From: an uncultured bacterium
GTDB lineage: Bacteria; Verrucomicrobiota; Kiritimatiellia; CAIVKH01
Direction of reading: 5' to 3'
Length of the DNA: 64,000 bases
Assembly: GCA_903906425.1 (NCBI GenBank)
Contig: CAIVKH010000124.1
Coordinates: forward strand, 35,981-99,980
In this document: positions 2,527 to 39,596 of the stretch, piece after piece
How the letters are laid out: each line of letters starts with the position of its first letter
How positions within the stretch are numbered: the first letter of the stretch is position 1
Translations under genes and position numbers: made by a program
Notes under the pieces: model-generated
What the model saw: the letters and a program-made list of their open reading frames with translations, nothing else
Told to the model about the DNA's origin: nothing
The model's database searches: none

Positions 2527-3339
2527 TCACGCGAGCGCCTCCTGGCCGGCGAGCACGCGGGCGATGAAATTTGCGACGGTGTCGCGCGTGCGCGGGACGG
2601 CGATCAACGCTTTGAGTTTTTCGATGTTCGCCTCGTAGCGTTCGGGTGCGCCGGCGGGCGCATCGGGCAATTTGCTCCCGGGAATCAGCGCGGCGATTTC
2701 GCGAATGGTGATCAGGCCGTCGCCGCAGCAGTTGACGATTTCGTTGCGGCAGTTTTTCGCGAGCAGTTCGAAGGCGAGCGCGGCAAGGAAGCGGCTGTCG
2801 AGATATTGATAGGCGGAGTCGGGATGAACGCGCAGCGGCGTGCCTTTGAGCAAATCATAGATCGAATTTTTCCGCAGGCCGGGGCCGACGAAGCCGCCCA
2901 TGCGCAGGACGAGCCATTGCGGTGCGAAGTGCCGGACGAGTTGCTCGGCGAGAAGTTTGTGGAAGCCGTACGGCGAAAGCTTCGCGGTTTCGATGACGCA
3001 ATCCTCGCGGTTGTTCGCGGGATTCTTCACGTCGCTGTACACGTCAATCGTGGAAAGGTGGACGTGCATGACCGCCTTGAAGTCGTGGAGCGATGCGTGG
3101 ACGGAGCGGACGGACAGGTCGAAATCGAGCGGCGGATTTTCGCGCGCGAGAAACTTTTTCGAGTTGCCGTTGGCGTTGACGAGCAGGTCGCAGGACATGC
3201 CGCGATGCTGGTCGTAATTCTGGCGCGTGATGCCCGTGGTTTCGAAGCCGCGTCGCTGCGCCTCGGCGACGACGGCCGAGCCGATGAAACCGCCCGCACC
3301 AATCACGATACAAACGGGCCGCTGCGGGTTCGCGGCCAT
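2527..3339 (-). CDS. NAD(P)-dependent epimerase/dehydratase (SDR family).
   Basis: 270-aa ORF with an N-terminal Rossmann motif, CIVIGAGGFIGSAVV. Sits in the sugar-nucleotide operon. Confidence 0.7.
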   Translation of the reverse strand: MAANPQRPVCIVIGAGGFIGSAVVAEAQRRGFETTGITRQNYDQHRGMSCDLLVNANGNSKKFLARENPPLDFDLSVRSVHASLHDFKAVMHVHLSTIDVYSDVKNPANNREDCVIETAKLSPYGFHKLLAEQLVRHFAPQWLVLRMGGFVGPGLRKNSIYDLLKGTPLRVHPDSAYQYLDSRFLAALAFELLAKNCRNEIVNCCGDGLITIREIAALIPGSKLPDAPAGAPERYEANIEKLKALIAVPRTRDTVANFIARVLAGQEALA

Positions 3340-4292
3340 CAGAGGCGCGCCTCACCGCGCGCGCGCGCTGCAACGAACCATTCGGCGGTGCGCTTGAGCC
3401 CGGCCTCGAGCGTCGTGTCGCATGAGAGGCCGAGCGAGTGAAGCCGGCGCACGTCGAAAATCTTGTCGATCTGCCCGTCGGGCTTCGTGGTGTCCCAGAC
3501 TATTTCGCCGGGGAACCCGGTGACTTTCTTCACGGTGTCCGCAAGCTCGCGGATCGAAATGCGGCGGCCGGCGGAGATGTTCACCGGATCGCTGGAATCG
3601 TAGTTGGCGAGGAACCACGGGATCGTCGCGGCGACGTCGCCTGCGTATACGAAATCGCGCGTGGGACGGCCGGTGCCGAAGGCGGTCATTTCTTTGCGAC
3701 CGGCTTCCTTCGCCTCGATATATTTGCGGATCATCGCGGGGATGACGTGCGCCTGCTCAAGATTGAAGTTGTCCCATTCGCCGTAGAGGTTGCCGGGGAT
3801 CAGCGTGACGGCGTTGAAACCGTATTGCTTGCGATACGCCCACGATTGGATGAGCAGCATCTTCTTCGCGATCGAGTAGCCGAGGCTGTCGACCTGCGGA
3901 AGTCCATTCCACATCTGGTCCTCGTCGATCGGCGAGGTGGCCGTTCCGGGGTAGGAACAGCCGCCCATCAGCGCGAGGAATTTCTTCGCGCCGCCGCGCC
4001 ACGCCTCGTGCATGACGTGGGTGCAAAAAACGATGTTGTCGTAGTAGTACTGCGCCGGCCGGTTGCGATTGTCCACGATTCCGCCGGATTTCGCCGCGAG
4101 ATGCACGACGCAGTCGGGCTGGACATCTCGGATCATCTTTTCCGGCGTGCCGGGTTTGAGCAGGTCGTAGTCCTTGCTGCTCACGCAGACGAATTCGGCT
4201 TCGAACGTTTCGCGGAGCCTCGGCAAAATGTGGTGGCCGAGGAAACCGGTTGCGCCGGTTACCAGAATCCGTTTGAACCGCTTGTCTTTCAT
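3339..4292 (-). CDS. GDP-L-fucose synthase-like extended SDR (GDP-4-keto-6-deoxy sugar epimerase/reductase).
   Basis: ILVTGATGFLGHHI Rossmann motif, YSIAKK (YxxxK) catalytic motif, and the GNLYGEWDNF...HVIPAMIRK block typical of Fcl/WcaG-type enzymes. Confidence 0.7.
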   Translation of the reverse strand: MKDKRFKRILVTGATGFLGHHILPRLRETFEAEFVCVSSKDYDLLKPGTPEKMIRDVQPDCVVHLAAKSGGIVDNRNRPAQYYYDNIVFCTHVMHEAWRGGAKKFLALMGGCSYPGTATSPIDEDQMWNGLPQVDSLGYSIAKKMLLIQSWAYRKQYGFNAVTLIPGNLYGEWDNFNLEQAHVIPAMIRKYIEAKEAGRKEMTAFGTGRPTRDFVYAGDVAATIPWFLANYDSSDPVNISAGRRISIRELADTVKKVTGFPGEIVWDTTKPDGQIDKIFDVRRLHSLGLSCDTTLEAGLKRTAEWFVAARARGEARL

Positions 4293-4546
4293 GACGAGAC
4301 CGAATCACGGTAGCCCACATCCGATGGTGAGCAAGGACGGGTGATGATTAGCGGCGACGTGGCTGTTTTTGCGAATATTTTCATTTGCGATGCGTGCGCG
4401 CTTGTAGCATCCCGTCATTTTCCATGTCAATCGGGCGGCTGTGACAGACGCACGCGAGGGCTGCGAATGACGCCCGGAGGCGTTTAGTCTTGCGCTGGTT
4501 TTGCAGGGACTATTAACTGCGCCGCCTATCGACAGGATGAAACTGC

Positions 4547-6157
4547 ATGGTGAAGATCGCGAAGAAGAACAACAGGAATGAGCCTGCCGCGCTCGCGGAC
4601 GGGGCACCCGACAGCGAACGCCGGAAAGGCGTCGTCCGTTCTGTGCTGGCCGAATATCGCAGACTGTCGGGAGGGGCGAAGCTTCTTGTGTGGATTCTGC
4701 TGGCATCGCATTTGCCGCTGATCGCCCTGGTGCTGAATTCGCTGCCGCTGAGTTTCGATGTCTCGACGCCGCCGTATCAGCACATGGGCATGATCGCGCG
4801 GATCGTGGACGGGCTTCCGCTCTACACGGGGCCGTCGTCGGAACATTCGGTCGTGACCTACACTCCTCTTTACTGGGTGATCGTCGCAGGGCTATCGAAG
4901 CTCTTCGGCCTCACCTTCACCCTCGCGCGCCTTGTCAGCCTGAGCGCGTCGATCGCGATGTGGTTCACGGTGGCGGCGTTCGTGTGGACGAACACGGCGA
5001 AGAATCTGGTGCTCTCCATCGCGGCGCCGGCGGTCCTGTTCGCGTCGTCGGTGCTGATCGGGAACTGGGCGCTGGACATTCACGTCAACGCGCTGCACTA
5101 CGCGCTGGCGGCCGCCGGCTTCTTCTGCCTGCGCGCCCCGCTGACGAACCGCCGCGTGATTGCGGGCGCGGTCGTGCTGGCGCTGTGCACGCTGACGAAG
5201 CAGACGGGGCTGGCGTATGTGGCAGCCGCGGGCTTCATGGTGCTGCTGTCCGCGCCGAAACGCGCGCCGCTGTTTGCGATCATCGCGGGCGGAATCATCG
5301 CGGGCGCGTTTGTCATCCTACAGCAGACCTCGCACGGCGAGTTCTACAACCAGATCGGCCCGGCCAACGCGAAGCTGCCGTGGATGGGCAAGCGCATCAT
5401 CGACGAAATCCTCCTGCAATCGTTCTGCGGCTATGCGGGCATTCTCTTCGCCATGACGATCGTCTGCCTCGCGCTGGACTGGAAGCCGAACATCTTCCTG
5501 CTGGCGAAGCAGCCGCACTACATGCTGCTCGCCTCGGGCGTGCTGGTCGCGATCATCGCGCATCCGAAATATGGCAGCGGCAACACCCACGACGTCATCG
5601 CGCTGGCCGGCATCTGCATCTGCGGCTGCATCGGGATTCACCGTTTCGTCGCGCTGGCCGGCGATGGCAGCAGGCGATTCCTCGCGGTCCTGCCGCTGGC
5701 GCAGCTCGCGCTTGTGCTGCTGGCCGCGCAGGGCAAGTGGGCGACCTACACGGCCAGCGATGCGGACAAGGCGAAGTACGCGCACATCGCGCAATATTTT
5801 CAATCAGGCCGCGCGGTGCTCTTCGGCGTGCCCTACATCCAGCACGCGTTCAACCAGCCGTCGCTGGGCATCCCCGACGACGAGTTTTCGAAGTGGCGCA
5901 ATGGGCGGCTCGACTACAGCGCGCTGCCGGACTTCTACGTGAAGCCCTACCGCGACGAGGTGTTCGACTACGTCATCATCGCCGACTACTTCGACCCCTC
6001 GCATCCGGCCTGCAAGGCGATCATGGAGCACTACCCGACCGTCGTCGAAAAGATCCCCGGCAATCCCCCCTTCGAGACCTACCTGCGCCACGAGATGTAC
6101 GTCTTGAAACCCAAGCACGCATCGGGAAACCCGCCCTACGCCCACCCCGCCCGCTGA
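4547..6157 (+). CDS. Polytopic membrane protein, GT-C / GT39 (ArnT/PMT-like) glycosyltransferase candidate.
   Basis: 536 aa with more than 10 hydrophobic segments and a soluble C-terminal domain. A polyprenyl-phosphate GT2 gene lies nearby. The family assignment is from overall appearance only. Confidence 0.5.
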   Translation: MVKIAKKNNRNEPAALADGAPDSERRKGVVRSVLAEYRRLSGGAKLLVWILLASHLPLIALVLNSLPLSFDVSTPPYQHMGMIARIVDGLPLYTGPSSEHSVVTYTPLYWVIVAGLSKLFGLTFTLARLVSLSASIAMWFTVAAFVWTNTAKNLVLSIAAPAVLFASSVLIGNWALDIHVNALHYALAAAGFFCLRAPLTNRRVIAGAVVLALCTLTKQTGLAYVAAAGFMVLLSAPKRAPLFAIIAGGIIAGAFVILQQTSHGEFYNQIGPANAKLPWMGKRIIDEILLQSFCGYAGILFAMTIVCLALDWKPNIFLLAKQPHYMLLASGVLVAIIAHPKYGSGNTHDVIALAGICICGCIGIHRFVALAGDGSRRFLAVLPLAQLALVLLAAQGKWATYTASDADKAKYAHIAQYFQSGRAVLFGVPYIQHAFNQPSLGIPDDEFSKWRNGRLDYSALPDFYVKPYRDEVFDYVIIADYFDPSHPACKAIMEHYPTVVEKIPGNPPFETYLRHEMYVLKPKHASGNPPYAHPAR

Positions 6158-7056: not shown

Positions 7057-7998
7057 TCAACTGAAGCCGTAGGTGTCTTTGACGATGAAGTTGGGGCGGC
7101 CCTTGATGTCGCGGTGGATCTTGCCGACGTAGATGCCGAGGATGCCGATGGTGAATAGAATCGTGCCGCCCAGGAAGATCATCGCGAGCGCCAGCCAGGA
7201 GACGCGCGAGCCGAAACCGAGGACGCTGGCGATGACGGCGAAGAACAGATAGATGAACGACAGGATCGAAACGATCATGCCGGCGAAGAGCGCGAAGTAC
7301 AGCGGCAGCGAGGAGAAGAGTGTGAGGCCGCGGATGAATTCCTTGTAGGGATTCGCGCTGCGCCACAGCGAAAACTTCGTCTCGCCGGCGAAGCGCGCCT
7401 CGCGTTCGTAGAACACCTGCACCTGCTTGAAGCCGACCCACGAGACCAGCCCGCGCATGAAAGGATCGAATTCGCCGAGCTTCAGAAGCTCAGACATGGC
7501 GCGGCGCGAGATGAGTTTGAAATCGCCGGTGTTTTCCAGAAGCGTGATGTCGGACATGGAGTTGATGGCGCGGTAGGCGGCCTTCGTGAGCGCCATCTTG
7601 AAGGCGTTCTCGCCGTGGCGGGCGGTGCGGGTGGTGTGAACGACATCGGCGCCCTTCTGCCATTCCGCGACGAGTTGCGGAATCAGTTCGGGCGGGTCCT
7701 GCAAGTCGCAATCCATGTACACGACCGCGTCGCCGGTGGCGTGATGGAATCCGGCGAGCACGCCGGGGGTGACGCCGAAGCGGCGGGACAGATTGACGAT
7801 CTTGACCTCGGGTGCGGTGGTTTCGTGCAGCTTGACGAGGATGTCGAGCGAGGCGTCGGTGGAGTTGTCGTTGACGAAGATGAATTCGCGGCGCAGCGGC
7901 AGCGGCGCGAGCGCGTCCTGCAGGCGCTTCACCAGTTCAGGAATGTTGTCGGCTTCGTTGCGGAACGAGAAGACGACGGACAGCAGCGGATTTTCCAT
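7057..7998 (-). CDS. Polyprenyl-phosphate glycosyltransferase, GT2 (GtrB/ArnC-like).
   Basis: MENPLLSVVFSFRNEADNIPELV...FVNDNSTD...YMDCDLQDPPE (DxD) plus two C-terminal TM helices. The ORF-track N-terminus (7999-8181) is REP read-through, so I placed the start at ATG 7998. Confidence 0.8.
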   Translation of the reverse strand: MENPLLSVVFSFRNEADNIPELVKRLQDALAPLPLRREFIFVNDNSTDASLDILVKLHETTAPEVKIVNLSRRFGVTPGVLAGFHHATGDAVVYMDCDLQDPPELIPQLVAEWQKGADVVHTTRTARHGENAFKMALTKAAYRAINSMSDITLLENTGDFKLISRRAMSELLKLGEFDPFMRGLVSWVGFKQVQVFYEREARFAGETKFSLWRSANPYKEFIRGLTLFSSLPLYFALFAGMIVSILSFIYLFFAVIASVLGFGSRVSWLALAMIFLGGTILFTIGILGIYVGKIHRDIKGRPNFIVKDTYGFS

Positions 7999-8262: not shown

Positions 8263-9501
8263 ATGACACCTTTTCCGGCCTCAAATTCTGTCGAAGATCC
8301 GGCCCTGACCGGCAAGACTTTCCGCAGCCAGCGTTACGATCTGGCGGTGGACACGATTTCGCGCGAGGAGATCGACGAGGTCATCAAGTGGCTGCAGGGT
8401 TATCCGCGCCTGACGATGGCCGACGAGACGAAGCGCTTCGAGGAGATGTGGTCGAAGTGGCTGGGCGTGAAGTACAGCGTGATGTGCAACTCGGGTTCGT
8501 CCGCGAATCTGCTGATGTACGCCGCCGCCGAGTCGTCGGGCCGCGCAAAGAAAAAGAAGATCATCGTGCCGGCGACGGGCTGGGCCACGACGATTGCGCC
8601 GGCCGTGCAATTCAACTGGCAGTCGGCGATGTGCGAGTCGTCGCGCAAGACGTTCGGCATGGATCCCGATCAGCTCGCTAAACTTTGCGAGCAGCACAGG
8701 CCGGAGGCGGTGATCGTTGTTCCGGTGCTCGGCGTGCCGTACGACGTGGACGCGATTCTGGAACTGAAGAAGAAATATGGTTTCATGCTTTTCGAGGATT
8801 GCTGCGCGAGCCACGGCGCGTTGCACAAGGGCCAAAAGATCGGAACGTTTGGCGACATGTCGTCGTTCTCGTTTTACTACGGCCACCACATGTCCACAAT
8901 CGAAGGCGGCGTCGTCAGCACGAATGACGAGGAGCTTTATCACCACCTGCTGATGCTCCGCAGCCACGGCTGGCTGAAGGATCTTCCGCAGGAGCTCGCC
9001 GACGCGACGAGGGCGAAATACGGGATCGATAATTTCCGGCAGCCTTTCACGTTCGTGATCCCCGGCTACAACCTGCGCCCGACCGATCTGAACGCGATCA
9101 TCGGCATGCTTCAGCTCAAGAAGCTCGACGCCACGGTGCAGCGCCGCGCTTCGAATCATCTCGTTTATCAGAAGGAACTCGCCGGCGTCGTCGAATTCGC
9201 GCCCGGGCTTCCCGGCGATACGATCAGCAGCATCTCGTTCTGCGCGGTGGCGCGCAGTTCGGCGGAGCGGAAGAAGATCGTCACCGAGCTCGACAAGAAC
9301 AAGATCGATACGCGGATTTTCACAGCTGGCAATCTCGGCTGTCATCCGTTTTGGTTTGAACGCTTCGGCAAGTTCTCGGCACCCGTCGCCGACTGGCTGA
9401 ACCAGGGTGGCTTCTTCCTGCCGAACAACCAGACGCTGGACCGCCCTGAAATCGAGTGGATTTGTGGTATCGTCCGCGATGCTGCAAAACGGAGCGGTTA
9501 A
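8263..9501 (+). CDS. DegT/DnrJ/EryC1/StrS-family PLP/PMP enzyme, RfbH (sugar 3-dehydrase)-like.
   Basis: LTMADETKRFEEMWSKWLGVKYSVMCNSGSSANLL...FSFYYGHHMSTIEGG. The NSGSSANL and xGHHxxxxEGG blocks are the RfbH/DegT pattern. Start moved to ATG 8263, downstream of the REP pair. Confidence 0.7.
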   Translation: MTPFPASNSVEDPALTGKTFRSQRYDLAVDTISREEIDEVIKWLQGYPRLTMADETKRFEEMWSKWLGVKYSVMCNSGSSANLLMYAAAESSGRAKKKKIIVPATGWATTIAPAVQFNWQSAMCESSRKTFGMDPDQLAKLCEQHRPEAVIVVPVLGVPYDVDAILELKKKYGFMLFEDCCASHGALHKGQKIGTFGDMSSFSFYYGHHMSTIEGGVVSTNDEELYHHLLMLRSHGWLKDLPQELADATRAKYGIDNFRQPFTFVIPGYNLRPTDLNAIIGMLQLKKLDATVQRRASNHLVYQKELAGVVEFAPGLPGDTISSISFCAVARSSAERKKIVTELDKNKIDTRIFTAGNLGCHPFWFERFGKFSAPVADWLNQGGFFLPNNQTLDRPEIEWICGIVRDAAKRSG

Positions 9502-31416: not shown

Positions 31417-31487
31417 TTGGAAACAAGCGATGACGGAAACTTCCAATCATTGGAACTCCACGCTGCGACAGCTTCCAAAGACTGGAA
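31408..31487. repeat. REP cluster 8: two canonical copies plus one variant.
   Basis: 31408-31422, 31441-31455, and the variant ttccaaagactggaa at 31473-31487. Confidence 0.9.
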
Positions 31488-31508
31488 GAAATGCACAGGC
31501 ATTCGCGG

Positions 31509-31646
31509 TCACGCGCCCGGCCGGTTGCGGCGGATCGTTTCGCCGTTGGTCGCGTTGCCCGCCACGACGTGATCCTTGAGCGGGAAGATGCGCTCGTGCA
31601 TCGCGCCGGAAATCCGCGCGGGCCCCGGGGGAAACGCGGCATTCAT
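31509..31646 (-). pseudogene. Relic copy C of the E1 gene 3' end (last 45 codons plus stop).
   Basis: Hand translation gives MNAAFPPGPARISGAMHERIFPLKDHVVAGNATNGETIRRNRPGA*. The intact E1 end reads [46 protein letters not shown] counted 30 mismatches over 138 aligned nt. Confidence 0.8.
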
Positions 31647-31712
31647 CGCGGCCCGGGGATATAAATTGGCGCATCCCTTGCATCTTCGCTCAAGTGGCGT
31701 ACCTCTTCGCCC

Positions 31713-32201
31713 ATGAATAAACTACTCGTCACAGCCATCGCCGTTGTCGCGCTTGCCATCGGTGCCACCGCCAAAACCTACAGCCTGCCCAAGGAGGACT
31801 CGATCGCCTCCGTCACCATCCCGGATGGATGGAAGGTGGAAGCCGAGGACGAAAGCCTCACGATTACGAGCAAGGATGAAACCATCGAGATCACGATGGA
31901 GATCCTCGGCGAAGACCAGCTCGAAGGCGCCATCATCGAAAACGTGGGCTACCTGAAGAAGCACAAGGTCAACATCGACGAGAAGTCCGAGAAGAAGACC
32001 TCCGGCGAGATCAACGGCCTGAAGGCCACCTTCTATGCCAAGACCGGCAAGGACGAAGACGGCCCGTGCAACATCAGCGAGATCTTCGTGCGCCTGTCCG
32101 ACAAGAAGCTCATTTCGATGCTCTACTGGGCCCCGGGCAAAATCGAGCAGGCCCAGCTCGATGACATCAAAACCATATTGAACAGCATCAAGAAGAAATA
32201 G
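31713..32201 (+). CDS. Small secreted hypothetical protein.
   Basis: 162 aa with signal peptide MNKLLVTAIAVVALAIGATA and Lys/Glu-rich mature composition. No motif recognised. Confidence 0.6.
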   Translation: MNKLLVTAIAVVALAIGATAKTYSLPKEDSIASVTIPDGWKVEAEDESLTITSKDETIEITMEILGEDQLEGAIIENVGYLKKHKVNIDEKSEKKTSGEINGLKATFYAKTGKDEDGPCNISEIFVRLSDKKLISMLYWAPGKIEQAQLDDIKTILNSIKKK

Positions 32202-32308
32202 CCCCCGCCCGAAGAATGGATGAAAGAGCCGGCCCTCGTGGACCGGCTCTTTGCTTTTGCCCCGCACGGCACCCCGGTCGGGGTTGCGCCAGACACTCAG
32301 ACCGCCGA

Positions 32309-32680
32309 CGCGCCCAAGTCCGCCGCCAACTTGCCCAAGTCCGTGACGAACTTGATCAAGGGCGTCGCCGCCGTGATCCGGACACGGCAAACTTGCCCAA
32401 GGACGCCGCAGTTTTGCCCACGCTCGCGATGTCCTCGACCGAGGACGCCACGAACTCGCCCAATGGAACGATGGACATGCCCTGGTTCGTCACCACCTTG
32501 CCCAAGGAAGCGGCGAACTCGCCTAAGGCCGTCGCCAGCTCGCCCAAAGAAACGGTGAACTTGCCCAAGGACGCGACAGACTTGCCCAAGGTGCTCGTGA
32601 ACTTGCCCAAGAAAACGATGGACTTGCTCAAGGACGCGGCAAACTTGCCTAAGTTCACGACGAACTTGCCCAAGTTTATC
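32309..32680. repeat. Array of about 18 tandem 21-bp units with core CTTGCCCAAG. It may encode a heptad-repeat protein.
   Basis: Core starts at 32309, 32330 and 32351, then 14 cores from 32392 to 32665 spaced every 21 bp. The 32351-to-32392 step is 41 bp, that is 2x21 minus 1. Seven cores are exact. Open frames exist on both strands (NLPKxxx on plus, LGKFxxS on minus). Confidence 0.9.
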
Positions 32681-32887
32681 GCGTCCGGAAGCTAAATCTT
32701 CGTCCGATTAGTCACGCAGACGGCTTAATTGCAGCGCCTTGCGTCACAAGTGGCAAAATCATCAAAAAATGCCGCCTGTCGGCTGGCAACCCGGCATCCT
32801 TCCTCGCCCCGGTTCGCCGGGACGCTCCCTTCAAAGATTTGTTCGATTTGTGTACTGGCTGAATTCATGAACCTCCGTGCGGAGCAC

Positions 32888-32934
32888 TTCCAATCATTGG
32901 AAATCACCGCCGCGACAACTTCCAAAGATTGGAA
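32888..32934. repeat. REP cluster 9: one canonical copy plus one variant.
   Basis: 32888-32902, and the variant ttccaaagattggaa at 32920-32934. Confidence 0.9.
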
Positions 32935-32994
32935 AAAATCAGGCGCGGGCATTTCTGCCCGCGCCGGTTCGCGTCCATTCGCGTTGATTCGCGC

Positions 32995-33180
32995 TTACAC
33001 GCCAAGTCTGTTGCGGCGGATCGCTTCGCCGTTGGTCGCGTTGCTGGTCACGCCGTGATCATTGAGCGGGATGATGCGCTCGTGGATGGCGTCGAGGATC
33101 CATGCGGGCTGCGGGAAGAAGTCGTTTTCCATTTCGGCGCAGGGCGTGATCCAGTTGCGCGAGCCGACGACGACGGGCGG
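32995..33180 (-). pseudogene. Relic copy B of the E1 gene 3' end (last 61 codons plus stop).
   Basis: Aligns without gaps to 34219-34404 with 12 mismatches over 186 nt (hand count). Ten of the 12 are synonymous. Homology stops abruptly after ...gacgacgacgggcgg. Confidence 0.9.
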
Positions 33181-33197
33181 CGAGTACAAAAGATCGA

Positions 33198-33887
33198 CTA
33201 TTTGCTCTTTATCAGCCACGCAAGTACCGCGCCGAGAACGGCACTGAAAGTTGCCAGCAGAACTTTGCTTTTAGTGTCTCTTGAAGCACGTTCAGTCTCG
33301 GTTTTGCGGCTGCGCTGTGTCCATTCCTGAAGTGCAGGAATTGCGGCGGCAATTCGAGACATGGCATCTGCCAATTCGGTCACGATTTTCCGGTATTCGC
33401 GGATAAGATCTAATGTCTCGTGTTTTGTAATGTCCTTGTTCGTGCGAATCGTGGCGACTTGCTGTGCGATTTGTTCCAGACGAGGGCGGATCGTGTGATA
33501 ATAGTCTGGAAACACCGCGGTGATGCATTCGTTTGAGTAGCCAGCAAGCATCTGAAGCGTCTTTTCGCGGAGCGAAATTTGCAGCCAGTCCGCCGCATCA
33601 AAGAACGCGCGAAATTCATGGCCTATGGCTTTGCGAAGCGACTGCTCGATATATTCAGAATCCGCCGGATTCCGCTGTTCGAGCATTCCCAATTCACAGG
33701 CCATGGCTCGCATGATGTGTTCGAGCGCGTGCCGCTGTTCCATCGCGGGCTGGAGAAAATCCAGCAATTCGGGATCTGTTTCTTCGGCGAGAATAAAAAG
33801 CGACTTGCAATGATTATGGATTTCAACCAATTCGCGCCAGAGTCGCTCGCAGGGCTTTGCGGAATTGCCCGGCTCCGCGCCGCTCAT
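33198..33887 (-). CDS. Hypothetical helical protein with a C-terminal transmembrane anchor (cargo gene 2).
   Basis: 229 aa with C-terminal VLLATFSAVLGAVLAWLI. Contains QRHALEH, which fits an Rx4H pattern. About 47% GC in the one 60-nt line I counted. Its ATG overlaps the stop of the upstream small ORF (ATGA). Confidence 0.6.
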   Translation of the reverse strand: MSGAEPGNSAKPCERLWRELVEIHNHCKSLFILAEETDPELLDFLQPAMEQRHALEHIMRAMACELGMLEQRNPADSEYIEQSLRKAIGHEFRAFFDAADWLQISLREKTLQMLAGYSNECITAVFPDYYHTIRPRLEQIAQQVATIRTNKDITKHETLDLIREYRKIVTELADAMSRIAAAIPALQEWTQRSRKTETERASRDTKSKVLLATFSAVLGAVLAWLIKSK

Positions 33888-34084
33888 GGGAGGCTGCGCG
33901 CCATCACGTCGCGCCGCTTAGTTTCAAACCTCTCCGTCGTGTAGATGCGGGATGATGAAATCCTCACACTACCGCGAAATCGTCCGCTTTCGTTCGTGGT
34001 CACCTGAACCGTACGTTCCGAGACCGGACGATCCGAAGGAAAGTCACGCGTCAGAACGGCTCGCCATTCCAAGAGTTTCGTCAT
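33884..34084 (-). CDS. Small basic hypothetical protein (66 aa, cargo gene 1).
   Basis: ATG 34084 is preceded by GGAGGA with a 6-nt spacer. Translationally coupled to the 229-aa gene. No motif recognised. Confidence 0.5.
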   Translation of the reverse strand: MTKLLEWRAVLTRDFPSDRPVSERTVQVTTNESGRFRGSVRISSSRIYTTERFETKRRDVMARSLP

Positions 34085-34218
34085 CACATTTCCTCCGCTG
34101 CTCATTGGCGGTGCAGTCTATTCAAGACATCACAACGATGTCCACCCGTAATTTGTAGTCTTCTAAACTCGATTGCAAGTTGGCACTCATTTCGTCTGCG
34201 CAGTGAAGTTTTGTCAAT

Positions 34219-36672
34219 CTATACGCCGAGCCGGTTGCGGCGGATCGCCTCGCCGTTCGTCGCGTTGCTGGTCACGACGTGATCCTTGAGCGGGATGATG
34301 CGCTCGTGGATGGCGTCGAGGATCCACGCGGGCTGCGGGAAGAAGTCGTTCTCCATTTCGGCGCAGGGCGTGATCCAGTTGCGGGAGCCGACGACGACGG
34401 GCGGGGCGTCGAGGTGGTCGAATGCAAGCTGGCCGAGGTTGGCGGCGATAGTTTGCATGATCGAACCGCGTTCGCTGGCGTCGCCGGCGACAAGCACGCG
34501 TCCGGTCTTCTTCACCGATTCGACGAGCGGTGTGTAGTCGAGCGGGTTGAGCGTGCGGCAGTCCCAGATGTCGGCGGTCATGCCGTATTTCTTTTCGAGA
34601 ATGTCGGCGGCTTCGATCGCGCGATAGAGCGTCGCGCCGATCGTGACGAGCGTGATGTCCTTTCCAACGCGGCGTTGCGCGGGCAGGCCGAACGGGATTT
34701 CGTAGTAGCCGGCGGGCACGGTCGGCTCGAACATTTCGCCGATGTCGTAGGTGCGCTGGCTCTCGAAGAACACGACGGGATCGCTTCCGGCGAGCGCGGT
34801 GTTGAGCAGGCCCTTGGCGTCGTACGGCGTGTTCGGGAACACGACCTTGAGGCCGGGGATGTGGTTGCAGATTGCGGTCCAGTCCTGCGAGTGCTGCGCG
34901 CCGTATTTCGAGCCGACGGACACGCGGAGCACGACGGGCATTTCGAGGACGCCCGCGCTCATGCTCTGCCACTTGGAAAGCTGGTTGAAGATTTCGTCGC
35001 CCGCGCGGCCCATGAAATCGCAGTACATCAGCTCGACGAGCGCACGCCCGCCGTCGAGCGCGTAGCCGACGGCCGTGCCGACGATCGCGCCCTCGGAGAT
35101 CGGCGAGTTGAAGAGGCGGTGATACGGCAGCGCCTCGGTGAGTCCGCGATAGCACGCGAACGCCCCGCCCCAGTCGCGATTTTCTTCGCCGTAGATCACG
35201 AGCGTCGGGTCGATCTTCGCGCGGTGGAGGATCGCTTCGAAGATGCCGTCGCGAAGCTGATAGACCTTGTTCTTCGGCGTCGGCTTGCCCTCGTGCATGC
35301 CGCTGCGGATCTTCTTCGCGATGGCGGCCACGCGCGGATTGTCGTCGCCGGCCTGCAGCAGATCGGGCTTGCGCGTCGTGTCGTACGATTCGACTTTGCG
35401 ATTCGAGAACATGAAGTCCTCGATCTTCGCGCCATCGAGCCGCGGCGAGATCGTCATGTCGCTCGCGAGCTTGAGCGACTTCGTGACGATGCCCTTGACG
35501 TTCGCGATGAGCTTCTGCTGCGCCGCGTCGTCGAGGATTTTGATCTTCTTGAGGTTCTCCGCGAACGTGATGATCGGATCAATCTTCGCCCACAGGTCGA
35601 GCTCCTCCTTCGTGCGGTACGACGACGCATCGGACGGCGAGTGACCGGAGAAGCGGTACGTCAGCGTGTCGAGCAGCACCGGCCCGTTGCCCTCTTCGAG
35701 AATTTTCCGCTTGCGCGCAATCGCGTCGGCGACGGCGAGCGGGTTGTAGCCGTCCACGCGTTCCGCGTGCATGCCGTCCTTGTTCACGCCGAGACCGAAG
35801 CGGGCGACGTAATCGTAGCCCATCGTCTCGCCGGACGTCTGGCCGCCCATGCCGTAGAAATTGTTCATGATGTTGAAAATGATCGGCAGCCCGCCGCGAT
35901 GCCCCTTTTCCCAGAGGTGATAGAGTTGGCCCATCGAGGCGAAGTTCATGCCTTCCCAAACCGGACCGCAGCCCATCGAGGCGTCGCCGACGTTGCAGAT
36001 AACCAGGCCCTTCTTACCGTTCACGCGTTTGAACAGCGCCGCGCCGGCGGAGATGTCGCCGGAGCCGCCGACGATTGCGTTGTTCGGATACACGCCGAAC
36101 GGCGGGAAGAACGCGTGCATCGAGCCGCCGAGGCCGCGATTGAAGCCGGCCTTGCGTCCGAAAATTTCCGCGAGCGCGCCGTACGTCAGAAAATCAACCG
36201 CGAGCTCCTTCACCGAGCCGCTGAAATGTTTTTCGACGATCGCGAGACACTCGCCGCCGAGATATTCCTTCATGATCTTTTGCAGCGACGCGTCGTCGAG
36301 CTTGTGAATCGCCGACAAACCCTTCGCGAGAATTTCGCCGTGCGAGCGGTGCGAGCCGTAGATGTGATCATCAACCGTCAGATGAAATGCCTGCCCGACG
36401 GCGGCCGCTTCCTGGCCCATGGACAGATGCGCCGGACCTTTGTGGTCATACGCGACGCCGTTGTACGAGCCTTCCGTCTTGATCGCGTGCAACATGCTTT
36501 CGAATTCGCGGATGAGGAGCATGTCCTCATAAATGCCGAGCAGCGCCTGTGCGCCGAGTGACTTCAATTCCTTCTCAATCGGCGTCGCATACTGGTTCAG
36601 CGGAATTTCCGGAGCCGTCAGCTTCGCGGGTTTACGTTCTTTTGCGGGATCTACAATTAGTGCCTTTGGCAT
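34219..36672 (-). CDS. 2-oxoacid dehydrogenase E1 component, fused alpha-beta subunits (ThDP-dependent).
   Basis: 817 aa. The alpha part carries [17 protein letters not shown]...[13 protein letters not shown]. The beta part carries [17 protein letters not shown]...[12 protein letters not shown]3 and E2 genes lie upstream on the same strand. Confidence 0.9.
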
Positions 36673-36722
36673 TTTCTATTTTCCTTTCAAACTATGTTTC
36701 AAAACTTCGTTCACTCTAAAAT

Positions 36723-36769
36723 TTCCAATCATTGGAAAACTCCGCCGCGCAAACTTCCAATCGTTGGAA
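36723..36769. repeat. REP cluster 10: two copies.
   Basis: 36723-36737 and 36755-36769 (ttccaatcgttggaa, one mismatch). Confidence 0.9.
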
Positions 36770-36824
36770 AGTCTTAATCAGAATCCTCGGCTACCAGATA
36801 TACTCAATTGTTTCGCTCTTTAGA

Positions 36825-39596
36825 CTATGTGATTCCATCCGCCGTCGTGTTGTTTTCTGCAAGTGGTAAGTGCATGTAGAAAACCGACCCAACTCCGGGC
36901 ACACTTTCCACATCTATGATTCCTTTGTGCTCATACACGATGCCGTGCGTGACGCTGAGACCAAGTCCAGTTCCGGTATTCTTTGTTGTAAAGAATGGAT
37001 CGAATATGTGGGGAAGATGATTGGGACCAATGCCCACTCCTTGGTCACGAATTGCAACTGTTAGGAATCTGCCTTTGTTAGCGGTCGTAATAGTAAGGCA
37101 CCCTCCGTTTTCCATAGCTTCCACACCATTGAGCATAAGATTAAGAAATGCCTGCTGTAACAAATCCGAGTCTCCAAGAACAAAATCATCGGGCGCACGC
37201 CAATCAGTTGACAAACGCACTTTCTTTTTCTCAAGATGACCACGAAAAAGACCAAGAGTCTGCTCAAGGATTGCGTGAACAGACACAGGCTTAAATATTG
37301 GCTGACGCGGACGAGCAAATCTGAGAAGACTATTCACCATTGAATCGATCCGCGAGATTTCTTGAGACATCAATGGCATGCCAGTCGCACGGAACTCTTC
37401 GTCATTATATCGTTCCGGGAGTAATTGGCAGAACGTCTTGAGAACTTGTAATGGGTTCTTGATTTCATGCGCCATGCCGGCTGCAAGCGTACCCACGCTA
37501 GCAAGCCGCTCCGTTCTTCTTGTCGCGCGTACTGATTCAGTCTTTTCGCGAGATGCAGAAATATATTCAATCAATTCTTTTTTGAGGTACTCCGCGTTCG
37601 CTTTGACCATGTCCTCGGCTTCATCAAGAAGACGGCCTTCTGGAATCAGAAGATCGTCCGGTTTGCGCTCAGCTTGCCATCGCGCCGCGTTCTCCGTTAC
37701 CCTTGCGCGTGTCTGTATGAACAGACGATTGTCACTAATCCATCTGGCCAATCGTGGCCACTTATCCAATAACACTTCGTGCGTAACATATACGATGGAC
37801 GCACCCGTGGTATCACGCTGGGTTGCCAATAGCCTACCATCGATGAGCTTCTCCACGACAGCTCGCATCTCTGTGTCACGGCAGATGTCTTCGGTTCGAG
37901 CATAAGTTCTGGATACGGTCTCCCGGTCTCCGGGGCCGGTACTAACAAGAGCATGGAATACGGCGGGCAGTTTCTGTCTAGCTTTGTCTGAAAGAGCCGC
38001 GACAATCTTTTCAGCGTGCGCGCAAACGGCTCCTTCCACACCACCTATTTCATCGTATGCCGCATTGGTGAGCACGCCTAATGAAGCACAACGCGCGTAA
38101 AGTTCAGTCAAGGTGAACTCAAGGAGGGGGAGACTCCCGGGGTTGTTAACAGCGGCATCTCTGAGCCGATCATCCAGAGGTTCTCCTGTGACGGGATGTC
38201 TTTCATAATGCAAGCCTGCCGCCGCCGCTGGCATTCTTACAGCGACACCGATGTCGGCCGGGGTCGGTGGTCCAAGATGATACTGTCCAAGTCCTTTCAT
38301 CAGCAACTGTAAGTCCGGAACTTCCTCGCAGCGATGGTAGAAATCGCTACGAAGCGTGGCCAATACCCAAATAACACCCGACTTCGATAACAGAGAGAGG
38401 ATTCGCGCAAAGACACGCCTTTCATCAGCACTGATTGTATCAAGAGTGAACATTTCTTCCATTTGGTCAATGACGAGTGCGATCCGCCAAGAGCTCCTGC
38501 TGATGCCAGTGTTTGGGACCGGCTCCCGAGACGACGGTGAAGCCAAGATCCGTGCGACGATCTCGCACGCAGCTTCAGGGCGTTCTCGCAGCGTACGATC
38601 AAAGTCCTCTGCGTCCATTCCGAGGCGGAGCATATTGTTCCGTAGAGGTATTGTGTTTAAGAGACAAGTGGCAAGTCCATCAATTAGGCTGCGCGGCGAG
38701 TCACTTGGGCGAAATATGCAATGCGCCCATGCTGTTGTTCCGTCGACAACGCCAGGTCTGACGAGTAGCGGTAAGACTCCTGCGCGGATCAAGGATGACT
38801 TACCGCAACCACTCATGCCCAGAACAGTCACGAACAAGGCTTCGCCGCGAGTAAGACTTCGCCGCCGAAGATTGCTGACAATGTCGGCTATTGCTTGAGT
38901 ACGACCAAAGAATATTTGCGAATGCTCGAACTCGAATACCTCGAGGCCACGAAATGGGCATCCATTCGTCCAAGACTTTGCGATGCTCCCAATTCTGGCC
39001 TGTTGTTCTCGGGCAGGAATTGCACGCTCTAACAACCTTCTGAGATGCATCTCGACCAACTTTTCAAACTCATCCGCGGTTGCGAAGCGATGAAGTGTAG
39101 CTGTGGGCAATCGGGTCTCTTCATGCTTAAACCAAGAATCGATGAAAGCATCGAGATTCTTCCTCTGTGACAGGCGTTGCAGGACCTCGACTTCTTCCGC
39201 GAGGCTCACTACGGGAATCTCCATCTTTCGATACACAAGCAAGTCCGGTTTCCCTCTCGCGGCGAAACCACGCGCAGCATCTTCGAACTCGAACGCGGTC
39301 CCGGACTCGTAAGCACTGCCGTCGGGGCGTCGGAAATGTGGTGGTAGTCGCGTTCCTAGACGGGACCATAAAATGCAGATCACGGCATCGCATTGAGATG
39401 GCAGCGTCAATTGATCCTGTGGATGCTCAACAGCGCTTAAGGGTTCCTGTTCCCAGAATATTGGCTCAATAGGCAAACCAGCAGCGAATTCTGCACGAAG
39501 ACGGAGCAAGACTCGCTCAACGAGGAGGCGTTCATGCTCTACGTCTCCGGGCGATGATACGAAAACCCGAAACATCGATTGGCCATTTTTCGTCAT
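36825..39596 (-). CDS. TIR-like/DUF4062 domain - nSTAND-type P-loop NTPase - histidine kinase (HisKA plus HATPase_c) fusion, 923 aa.
   Basis: N-terminus: FRVFVSSPGDVEHERLL...CDAVICILWSRLGT. NTPase: Walker A VLGMSGCGKSSLIRAGVLP (nt about 38793-38819), Walker B LVIDQMEEMFT, then LRSDFY, PGSLPLLEFTLTELY, YDEIGGVEGAV and THEVLLDKWPRLARWI. Kinase: H-box AAGMAHEIKNPL (His710, nt 37467-37469), N-box LNLMLNGVEAM, G-boxes DQGVGI and GTGLGLS. Start has RBS GAGGAG. About 47-48% GC in two hand-counted lines. Confidence 0.8.
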   Translation of the reverse strand: MTKNGQSMFRVFVSSPGDVEHERLLVERVLLRLRAEFAAGLPIEPIFWEQEPLSAVEHPQDQLTLPSQCDAVICILWSRLGTRLPPHFRRPDGSAYESGTAFEFEDAARGFAARGKPDLLVYRKMEIPVVSLAEEVEVLQRLSQRKNLDAFIDSWFKHEETRLPTATLHRFATADEFEKLVEMHLRRLLERAIPAREQQARIGSIAKSWTNGCPFRGLEVFEFEHSQIFFGRTQAIADIVSNLRRRSLTRGEALFVTVLGMSGCGKSSLIRAGVLPLLVRPGVVDGTTAWAHCIFRPSDSPRSLIDGLATCLLNTIPLRNNMLRLGMDAEDFDRTLRERPEAACEIVARILASPSSREPVPNTGISRSSWRIALVIDQMEEMFTLDTISADERRVFARILSLLSKSGVIWVLATLRSDFYHRCEEVPDLQLLMKGLGQYHLGPPTPADIGVAVRMPAAAAGLHYERHPVTGEPLDDRLRDAAVNNPGSLPLLEFTLTELYARCASLGVLTNAAYDEIGGVEGAVCAHAEKIVAALSDKARQKLPAVFHALVSTGPGDRETVSRTYARTEDICRDTEMRAVVEKLIDGRLLATQRDTTGASIVYVTHEVLLDKWPRLARWISDNRLFIQTRARVTENAARWQAERKPDDLLIPEGRLLDEAEDMVKANAEYLKKELIEYISASREKTESVRATRRTERLASVGTLAAGMAHEIKNPLQVLKTFCQLLPERYNDEEFRATGMPLMSQEISRIDSMVNSLLRFARPRQPIFKPVSVHAILEQTLGLFRGHLEKKKVRLSTDWRAPDDFVLGDSDLLQQAFLNLMLNGVEAMENGGCLTITTANKGRFLTVAIRDQGVGIGPNHLPHIFDPFFTTKNTGTGLGLSVTHGIVYEHKGIIDVESVPGVGSVFYMHLPLAENNTTADGIT

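Follow-up and report, generated by a model that had tools for sequence, protein, structure and literature searches.

Why does roughly 1 kb of foreign-looking DNA lie directly behind the stop codon of a core metabolic gene, and what do the two small genes on it do? Here we examined this question in a 64,000-nucleotide (nt) stretch of contig CAIVKH010000124.1 from an uncultured bacterium of the Kiritimatiellia, referred to below as the window. The islet in question has a low content of guanine plus cytosine (GC) and is placed between the stop codon of the live gene for 2-oxoisovalerate dehydrogenase E1 (817 amino acids) and a duplicate of the 3′ end of that gene. Its open reading frames (ORFs) amount to two genes on the minus strand, the first for a small basic protein and the second for a larger protein that ends in a membrane helix. 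The best explanation for the islet is that it is a horizontally acquired two-gene module, and we estimate the probability that this module has a conflict-related role, in defence or addiction, at about 0.5. The genes and their expression signals are as follows.

33884 to 34084, minus strand: small gene, encoding the 66-amino-acid basic protein; its TGA stop overlaps the ATG of the large gene.
33198 to 33887, minus strand: large gene, encoding the 229-amino-acid tail-anchored protein, with a predicted head, stalk helix and membrane helix.
33887 to 33884, minus strand: ATGA overlap between the stop of the small gene and the start of the large gene.
34091 to 34096, minus strand: Shine-Dalgarno-like GGAGGA, followed by the 6-nt spacer AATGTG and the ATG at 34084.
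34115 to 34144, minus strand: sigma-70-like promoter match TGGACA-18-TAGACT within the 134-nt spacer after the E1 stop, a weak consensus match of a kind that shuffled sequence yields 0.9 times on average.

An earlier note, made by reading the letters of the window, had described a translationally coupled minus-strand pair with a ribosome-binding site of GGAGGA and a 6-nt spacer before a start at 34084. The coordinates, the ATGA overlap and the spacer were all confirmed, with the GGAGGA at 34096 to 34091. The note had also counted about 47% GC in one line of the islet and called the composition foreign, and this held as well. The islet (33186 to 34218) has 52.1% GC, with several 60-nt lines at 43–47%, compared with 60.3% for the window and 62.2% for E1. 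At third codon positions the GC content is 57% in the large gene and 62% in the small gene, against 84.6% in E1. Rfam and tRNA scans found no RNA features in the region. The composition of the islet is foreign.

Both ORFs are real genes, beyond what chance would produce, because they have hundreds of homologues with residues that are invariant across phyla. A word-indexed search with the large protein returned 35 homologues at 37–51% identity, none of them with a Pfam domain, and an exhaustive profile search extended the family to 914 clusters at 50% identity, 737 of which have E ≤ 1e-10. A single-sequence word search with the small protein found no homologues. A search with an alignment of the ORFs that precede the large gene in other loci retrieved at least 91 clusters at 90% identity, mostly of 65 amino acids. 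The small ORF is often missed by gene callers, even on contigs identical to the window.

The two genes form one conserved operon. Using hmmsearch on six-frame ORFs, we found the small gene directly upstream of the large gene and on the same strand in 17 of the 18 independent loci from the Genome Taxonomy Database (GTDB) that have upstream DNA; the sole exception is a degraded copy (L027; L-numbers denote individual loci outside the window). A nineteenth GTDB locus, L021, begins at a contig edge and stands outside this count. The small gene was also directly upstream in every metagenome locus examined, and across loci the genes are spaced by 0–40 nt or overlap. The co-occurrence in other genomes that the earlier note proposed to look for was thus found. 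Carriers belong to the Verrucomicrobiota, Kiritimatiellia, Lentisphaerae, Planctomycetota, Omnitrophota, Sumerlaeota, Nitrospirota, Syntrophales, Thermodesulfobacteriota and Oscillospiraceae, and include a Methanobacteriota archaeon. The pair spans approximately 10 bacterial phyla and one archaeon. The distribution is patchy, with 19 matches among 185,579 species representatives in a scan limited by its search patterns. The family occurred in none of 50,697 GenBank phage genomes and in one of 72,556 plasmid records, and five IMG/VR contigs carry the module.

The AlphaFold model of the large protein is confident and all-helical (predicted local distance difference test score, pLDDT, 91.5; predicted template modelling score, pTM, 0.79), in agreement with the earlier description of a 229-residue helical protein ending in one transmembrane helix. 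Helices at residues 12–37, 45–65, 75–114 and 129–149 form a bundle, here called the head (approximately residues 12–149). A single 71-residue helix at 158–228 follows the bundle, and in the model its end is the membrane segment. The C-terminus reads VLLATFSAVLGAVLAWLI-KSK. The corresponding coding regions are these.

33210 to 33263, minus strand: C-terminal transmembrane helix VLLATFSAVLGAVLAWLI, residues 209–226, located from the sequence.
33705 to 33740, minus strand: conserved motif 1, E50..R52....H57..R60 (ME.RHALEHIMRA), which includes QRHALEH (residues 51–57).
33585 to 33632, minus strand: conserved motif 2, KAIGHEFRAFFDAADW (K86, G89, H90, R93, D97, D100, W101).

Across 103 diverse members, H57, H90, R93, D97, R148 and K151 are invariant, and K28, E35, E36, R60, Y79, F96, D100, R107, P127, Y129, Y130, D152 and Y165 are at least 90% conserved. 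Two similar HxxRA units lie on adjacent helices (LEH57IMR60A and IGH90EFR93A), and D97/D100 and an R148-x-x-K151-D152 loop are conserved as well. Because so many invariant polar residues fall within approximately 150 residues, the pattern suggests a catalytic or ligand-binding pocket in the head. Longer versions of 321 amino acids (P0002–P0005, L007 at 3364–4329, and L016) contain an internal duplication of approximately residues 105–190, which adds a second stalk unit. These versions are no fusions to the small protein.

The small protein has 66 residues and a predicted isoelectric point of 11.3, with 14 Lys and Arg against 8 Asp and Glu. An in-frame ATG further upstream, at 34105, would give 73 residues; the homologues start at the 66-residue position. 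The conserved core of the family is RFRGSxRxSTGRxWT...R..vL.TPLP. In the AlphaFold model (pLDDT 83.6) the protein has three short helices, and the invariant RFRGSxRxSTGR segment is modelled as coil. Weak matches to SHOCT (PF09851) were found in 9 of 54 family members at E ≤ 1 (best E 0.0078), below the Pfam threshold, and the window protein itself has no match. The matching part is the C-terminal half, GRIWTdeEYe..R.kvL. The function of SHOCT is unknown (PMC3581485), and for SHOCT-like domains a role in holding proteins at the inner leaflet of the membrane has been proposed (PMC11237479).

The location of the membrane helix differs between loci in a way that bears on how the two proteins may work together. 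We scanned the intact loci for hydrophobic segments (Kyte-Doolittle 17-residue mean of at least 2.0), with L035 and L038 checked by eye. The large protein carries the helix at its tail in 22 loci, the small protein carries it at its N-terminus in five (L026, L034, L035, L037 and L038), and across the intact loci the two arrangements are mutually exclusive. A three-gene, Firmicutes-type variant is found in L026, from a metagenome-assembled genome (MAG) of the Oscillospiraceae, in Monoglobus pectinilyticus (L038) and on IMG/VR contigs (L034–L037). In this variant a protein of approximately 165 amino acids with four transmembrane helices comes first, the small protein is approximately 100 amino acids long with an N-terminal membrane helix, and the large protein has no membrane helix. 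The variant lies at the following coordinates.

L026: 9117 to 10549.
L034: 4668 to 6063.
L035: 9243 to 10513.
L037: 9153 to 10501.
L038: 7016 to 8537.

Because the membrane anchor moves from one partner to the other, we infer that the two proteins probably form one membrane-tethered complex. The shift of the helix between subunits makes the complex a clear and testable prediction.

The arrival of the islet can be read from the DNA that brackets it, which includes the features below.

34220 to 34404, minus strand: live E1 3′ end, the upstream copy of the bracketing repeat.
32996 to 33180, minus strand: relic B, a duplicate of the last 61 E1 codons plus the stop, 94% identical to the live copy.
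32942 to 32965, minus strand: strong intrinsic terminator just after relic B, a 10-bp stem (9 GC pairs) with a T-run behind it.
31510 to 31699, minus strand: relic A, an older and more decayed copy of the E1 3′ end, which bounds earlier cargo at 31700–32885.

The right junction of the islet falls exactly at the E1 stop codon, and relic B begins 18 nt past the stop of the 229-residue gene. The terminator is probably the original one of E1, now ending a transcript of E1 plus the pair. The duplicated E1 3′ ends mark an insertion site, at a location that the earlier note had called an insertion hotspot. The note's ordering of the cargo, with the pair as the youngest, is supported by relic A, which is 63% identical over 190 nt in one comparison and 86% over 108 nt in another.

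The live E1 3′ end and relic B share 185 nt and differ at 12 of them, with 10 differences synonymous and two changing an amino acid (P approximately 4e-5 against neutral decay). Because 10 of the 12 differences are synonymous, relic B and the live copy diverged as parts of working E1 genes in different lineages. Duplication in place followed by decay of relic B does not fit this synonymous bias and was rejected. The pattern indicates insertion of a circle that carried a copy of the E1 3′ end, and it fits the arrival of the E1 3′ end together with the pair from a related genome by a Campbell-type insertion, either site-specific or homologous. Two relatives with an E1 of at least 90% identity lack the pair behind this gene. 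The islet itself has no integrase, and none is present among the called genes around E1. Either the window islet is a remnant, or its transfer took place in trans or through homologous recombination. Exact and degenerate metagenome scans for the E1 3′ end as a recurrent insertion site gave no matches. With its synonymous-biased E1 3′ ends, the site is a clean example of tiny, integrase-less cargo islets added serially behind a core gene.

A second integration signature is present in a Syntrophus MAG (L015), where perfect 45-bp repeats of the 3′ half of tRNA-Arg(CCT), a classic attachment (att) site signature, enclose a 2.2-kb segment that contains the pair. The repeats are placed as follows.

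L015, 8659 to 8703 and 10905 to 10949: 45-bp direct repeats of the tRNA-Arg(CCT) 3′ half.

Within this segment, a stretch at approximately 9120–9400 on the minus strand resembles by eye the remnant of a transposase C-terminus. In L008 alone, a 38-nt inverted repeat with 79% complementarity (2077–2114 and 3263–3300) flanks the pair exactly, and the window has no equivalent. Conserved DNA ends, terminal inverted repeats and a common upstream element were sought across loci, and none is shared.

The surroundings of the islet in the window hold further inserts and repeats. The earlier cargo at 31700–32885, between relic A and relic B, has a lipoprotein-like ORF of 162 amino acids (31713–32201, plus strand) and an array of 21-nt (7-amino-acid) tandem repeats at approximately 32297–32685 that can be read on both strands. 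A 54-nt element with two TTCCAATCATTGGAA-type palindromes, which translates as ‘FQSLE’, is present at 31439–31492, 32886–32939 and 36721–36774, with one copy after each E1 relic and one upstream of E1. The element is likely to be either an intergenic repeat found genome-wide or one associated with terminators. On the other side, between E3 and E1 of the 2-oxoisovalerate dehydrogenase operon, a gene at 36825–39596 (minus strand, 51.6% GC against 60.3% for the window) encodes a 923-amino-acid protein with nSTAND1/AAA_16 NTPase, HisKA and HATPase_c domains by Pfam; its N-terminal region of approximately 120 residues is TIR-like or DUF4062-like by eye only. The relatives L032 and L045 have a GH28 gene in its place. 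Possibly, this gene is another foreign insert of the conflict type next to E1.

In other genomes the pair is found repeatedly next to defence and mobile genes. In L004 (and its duplicates) and in L017 a type III restriction-modification (RM) system directly precedes it on the same strand, and in L007 and L012 a fusion between a methylase and an Mrr-type endonuclease does so. The fusions share 69% identity, and the methylase-Mrr cassette and the pair therefore travel together. In L019 the pair directly follows a Gabija-like pair of an OLD-family ATPase/TOPRIM protein and a UvrD helicase. Methylase genes or fragments are also present within approximately 6 kb in L001, L022, L024 and L043. In total, 8 of approximately 31 independent loci have methylase or RM genes within this distance, directly upstream of the pair in four (L004, L007, L012 and L017). 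Because methylase genes are rare, this is far above the chance level of approximately 1%, a figure that is our own rough and uncomputed estimate. Mobile-element neighbours include an integrase (L007), an IS3 transposase (L043) and an AntA antirepressor beside the pair (L028), and a pooled 5-kb neighbourhood scan of L019–L030 contained one Mu-type portal gene. On the IMG/VR contigs the neighbours are serine recombinases, Cro/C1 repressors, tail genes, AAA_21 with RloB, and a reverse transcriptase. Proximity to defence genes, also raised in the earlier note, is thus seen in unrelated genomes, and the pattern is that of a small mobile module residing in defence islands and integration hot spots. 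In L001, repeated units at 5055–5469 and 7076–7373 flank the pair, each with a methylase C-terminal fragment and an ORF of 56 or 68 amino acids (GEKLFRFL...VTHVE..ETRR), the two ORFs being 57% identical to each other. These units suggest serial insertion at that site too.

The earlier note had recognised neither protein, and library searches likewise assigned no housekeeping or other family to them. Neither has a significant match in Pfam, NCBIfam, PADLOC or PHROGs, and neither was matched by the PADLOC-DB v2 models at E ≤ 10. Pfam scans of 103 large-family members returned coiled-coil and membrane-helix noise only, and those of 54 small-family members gave the weak SHOCT signal only. Profile searches against the Protein Data Bank (PDB) reached a best E of approximately 0.06, with noise from the stalk and membrane helix (VAMP2, spike S2, BipD). 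Foldseek found no structural relative for the large model in PDB and BFVD or for the small model in PDB, with no match at E ≤ 0.001, and the best 50 of approximately 400 weak hits of the large model are generic helical bundles. Resemblances to syntaxin/SNARE proteins, AhlC and ESCRT-III were rejected as too weak. Word searches of the literature for a matching described system found none.

We read the pair as a membrane-tethered defence or addiction module because of its conserved operon, foreign origin, integration signatures, defence and mobile neighbourhoods, and a membrane helix that changes partner between lineages. In the mechanism we propose, the C-terminal helix would anchor the 229-residue protein, whose helical head would lie in the cytoplasm and carry a putative pocket of invariant His, Arg, Asp and Lys residues, among them those of the two HxxRA units on adjacent helices and of the R..KD loop. 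The 66-residue basic protein would bind and control this head. Drawn from a mobile pool of defence or addiction genes, the module would most likely be a unit of the abortive-infection or toxin-antitoxin type. The small protein may restrain the membrane-anchored effector until a trigger, e.g. phage infection, releases it; the site of action of the freed effector could be the inner membrane or a substrate bearing phosphate. The earlier note had seen a resemblance to toxin-antitoxin or abortive-infection modules. The conserved, coupled and foreign pair with defence neighbours bears this out in part, and the match to a known toxin, antitoxin or defence family that would complete it was not found.

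Several observations weigh against a conflict-related role. In approximately half of the loci the pair stands alone, inserted between core genes (TGT, DAHP synthase, mutS, hisF, dnaE, tilS, argB and E1), and because of these loci the defence association is real but partial. The libraries searched contain no homologue from a known defence, toxin, antitoxin or effector family and no structural relative. The conserved polar pocket could equally serve a function outside conflict, and the fold of the small protein when alone is uncertain, since its central segment is modelled as coil. The carriers are nearly all uncultured MAGs, and the sole cultured carrier found, M. pectinilyticus, has the three-gene variant.

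The alternative that survives best, though we consider it unlikely, is a membrane or envelope-stress complex unrelated to conflict that happens to be mobile, with the small protein as a SHOCT-like subunit beneath the membrane. The tail-anchored architecture of the model is consistent with such a complex, as are the many loci among housekeeping genes and the weak SHOCT matches in 9 of 54 small proteins, given the proposed role of SHOCT-like domains as inner-leaflet anchors (PMC11237479). However, these matches are below the Pfam threshold, and an ordinary cellular complex does not sit well with a foreign composition, att-like flanking repeats, absence from close relatives and a patchy distribution (19 of 185,579 species representatives in the pattern-limited scan). 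The frequency of methylase and RM neighbours, far above our rough and uncomputed estimate of approximately 1%, also argues for the defence or addiction module.

A dedicated partnership with restriction-modification, in which the pair tethers or regulates adjacent N6/N4 methylase or restriction genes at the membrane, is improbable. The position directly downstream of type III RM systems (L004, L017) and of methylase-Mrr fusions (L007, L012) would be expected of such an accessory, and so would the joint presence of the pair and a 69% identical methylase in two genomes and the methylase fragments that flank the pair in L001. Most loci, the window included, nevertheless have no methylase or restriction gene within 5 kb, and the adjoining RM systems are of different types. 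The Gabija-like neighbours of L019 are better explained by common residence in defence islands than by a dedicated partnership.

It is just as doubtful that the pair is a moron, i.e. a prophage or mobile-element gene set for superinfection exclusion or for control of lysis at the membrane. The module lies near recombinases, Cro/C1 repressors and tail genes on five IMG/VR contigs, beside an AntA antirepressor in L028 and, in the 5-kb scan, in the company of one Mu-type portal gene. A few members have weak holin-like matches, which derive from the membrane helix. Against this, there is no match among the 50,697 GenBank phage genomes or in PHROGs, most loci have no phage genes nearby, and the islet in the window is about 1 kb long without phage context.

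The weakest alternative is the one to which the earlier note had pointed with QRHALEH, a HEPN-type RNase toxin with an R52-x4-H57 active site that would cleave RNA once freed from a small antitoxin: the Rx4H string is present in the window protein, its Arg is kept in 19 of 20 aligned homologues, H57 is invariant in the 103 members, the model is all-helical and the operon has a toxin-antitoxin-like layout (small gene first, ATGA overlap), but we regard this reading as very improbable, since no HEPN family in Pfam matches the window protein at E ≤ 10 or recurs among the 103 members at E ≤ 1, PADLOC returned nothing for it, HEPN structures are absent from the best 50 of approximately 400 Foldseek matches in PDB and BFVD (generic bundles only, none at E ≤ 0.001), R52 is less than 90% conserved in the 103 members while the invariant residues are in the HxxR pairs H57/R60 and H90/R93, and the motif is in the second helix of a bundle of approximately 150 residues rather than near the end of a compact HEPN domain.

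If the pair proves to be a defence or addiction system, that repertoire gains two protein families described in no curated library (914 and at least 91 clusters), spanning the Planctomycetota-Verrucomicrobiota-Chlamydiota (PVC) group, Desulfobacterota, Nitrospirota, Firmicutes and some archaea. More tentatively, the pair could be the founding example of a widespread, undescribed anti-phage or addiction system, with a tail-anchored effector of new helical fold, a new His/Arg site (double HxxRA) for catalysis or ligand binding, a basic 65-residue partner as its gate and integrase-less mini-islets that carry the 3′ end of their target. The large protein, the putative effector, is membrane-anchored with no structural match in PDB or BFVD, and a module of two genes in less than 1 kb would be convenient to handle. 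Should it instead be a membrane complex outside conflict, the analysis still annotates a large family of unknown function. The pair is a sound candidate for experimental work, though not one that would surprise a specialist.

Parts of the module resemble known systems to different degrees. The C-terminal half of the small protein weakly matches SHOCT, and SHOCT-like bihelical modules have a proposed role close to the membrane, but SHOCT has neither the invariant RFRGSxRxSTG segment nor the TPLP terminus. The large protein resembles syntaxin-type SNAREs in architecture, with a helical bundle that leads into a long helix and then a membrane anchor at the C-terminus, and Sso1/Sso2 and a viral t-SNARE are among its weak Foldseek matches. 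However, with probabilities of 0.2–0.35, TM-scores of approximately 0.25, E above 0.1 and no sequence similarity, these matches are not evidence of relationship. Like HEPN-domain RNases, e.g. HEPN-MNT, the large protein is all-alpha, has an Rx4H string and conserved His and Arg residues, and is found in defence islands. HEPN families associated with abortive infection were reportedly described by Anantharaman et al. in 2013. The large protein differs in matching no HEPN profile or fold, in the weaker conservation of its motif Arg, in its membrane anchor, and in its conserved set of two HxxRA units, D97/D100 and the R148..K151-D152 loop.

The islet also resembles islands that target the 3′ ends of genes, with att duplication of the tRNA type. 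It is bracketed by a duplicated E1 3′ end, E1 is kept intact, and L015 has its tRNA repeats. Unlike such islands, the window islet is about 1 kb long, has no integrase, and is flanked by a long repeat of 185 nt with mainly synonymous differences. The module as a whole resembles type II toxin-antitoxin and small abortive-infection operons, in which two short, co-oriented and overlapping genes are likewise arranged with the small basic one first. The patchy horizontal spread is similar, as is the occurrence both as solitary inserts and within defence islands and mobile elements. In contrast to those operons, the pair matches no toxin, antitoxin or abortive-infection family in Pfam, NCBIfam or PADLOC. 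Unlike a type II antitoxin, the small protein has no ribbon-helix-helix, AbrB or helix-turn-helix fold, and its large partner is a tail-anchored protein whose helical head is new. The protein families and the fold are in no library queried, and the small two-gene module of defence islands is itself a familiar kind.

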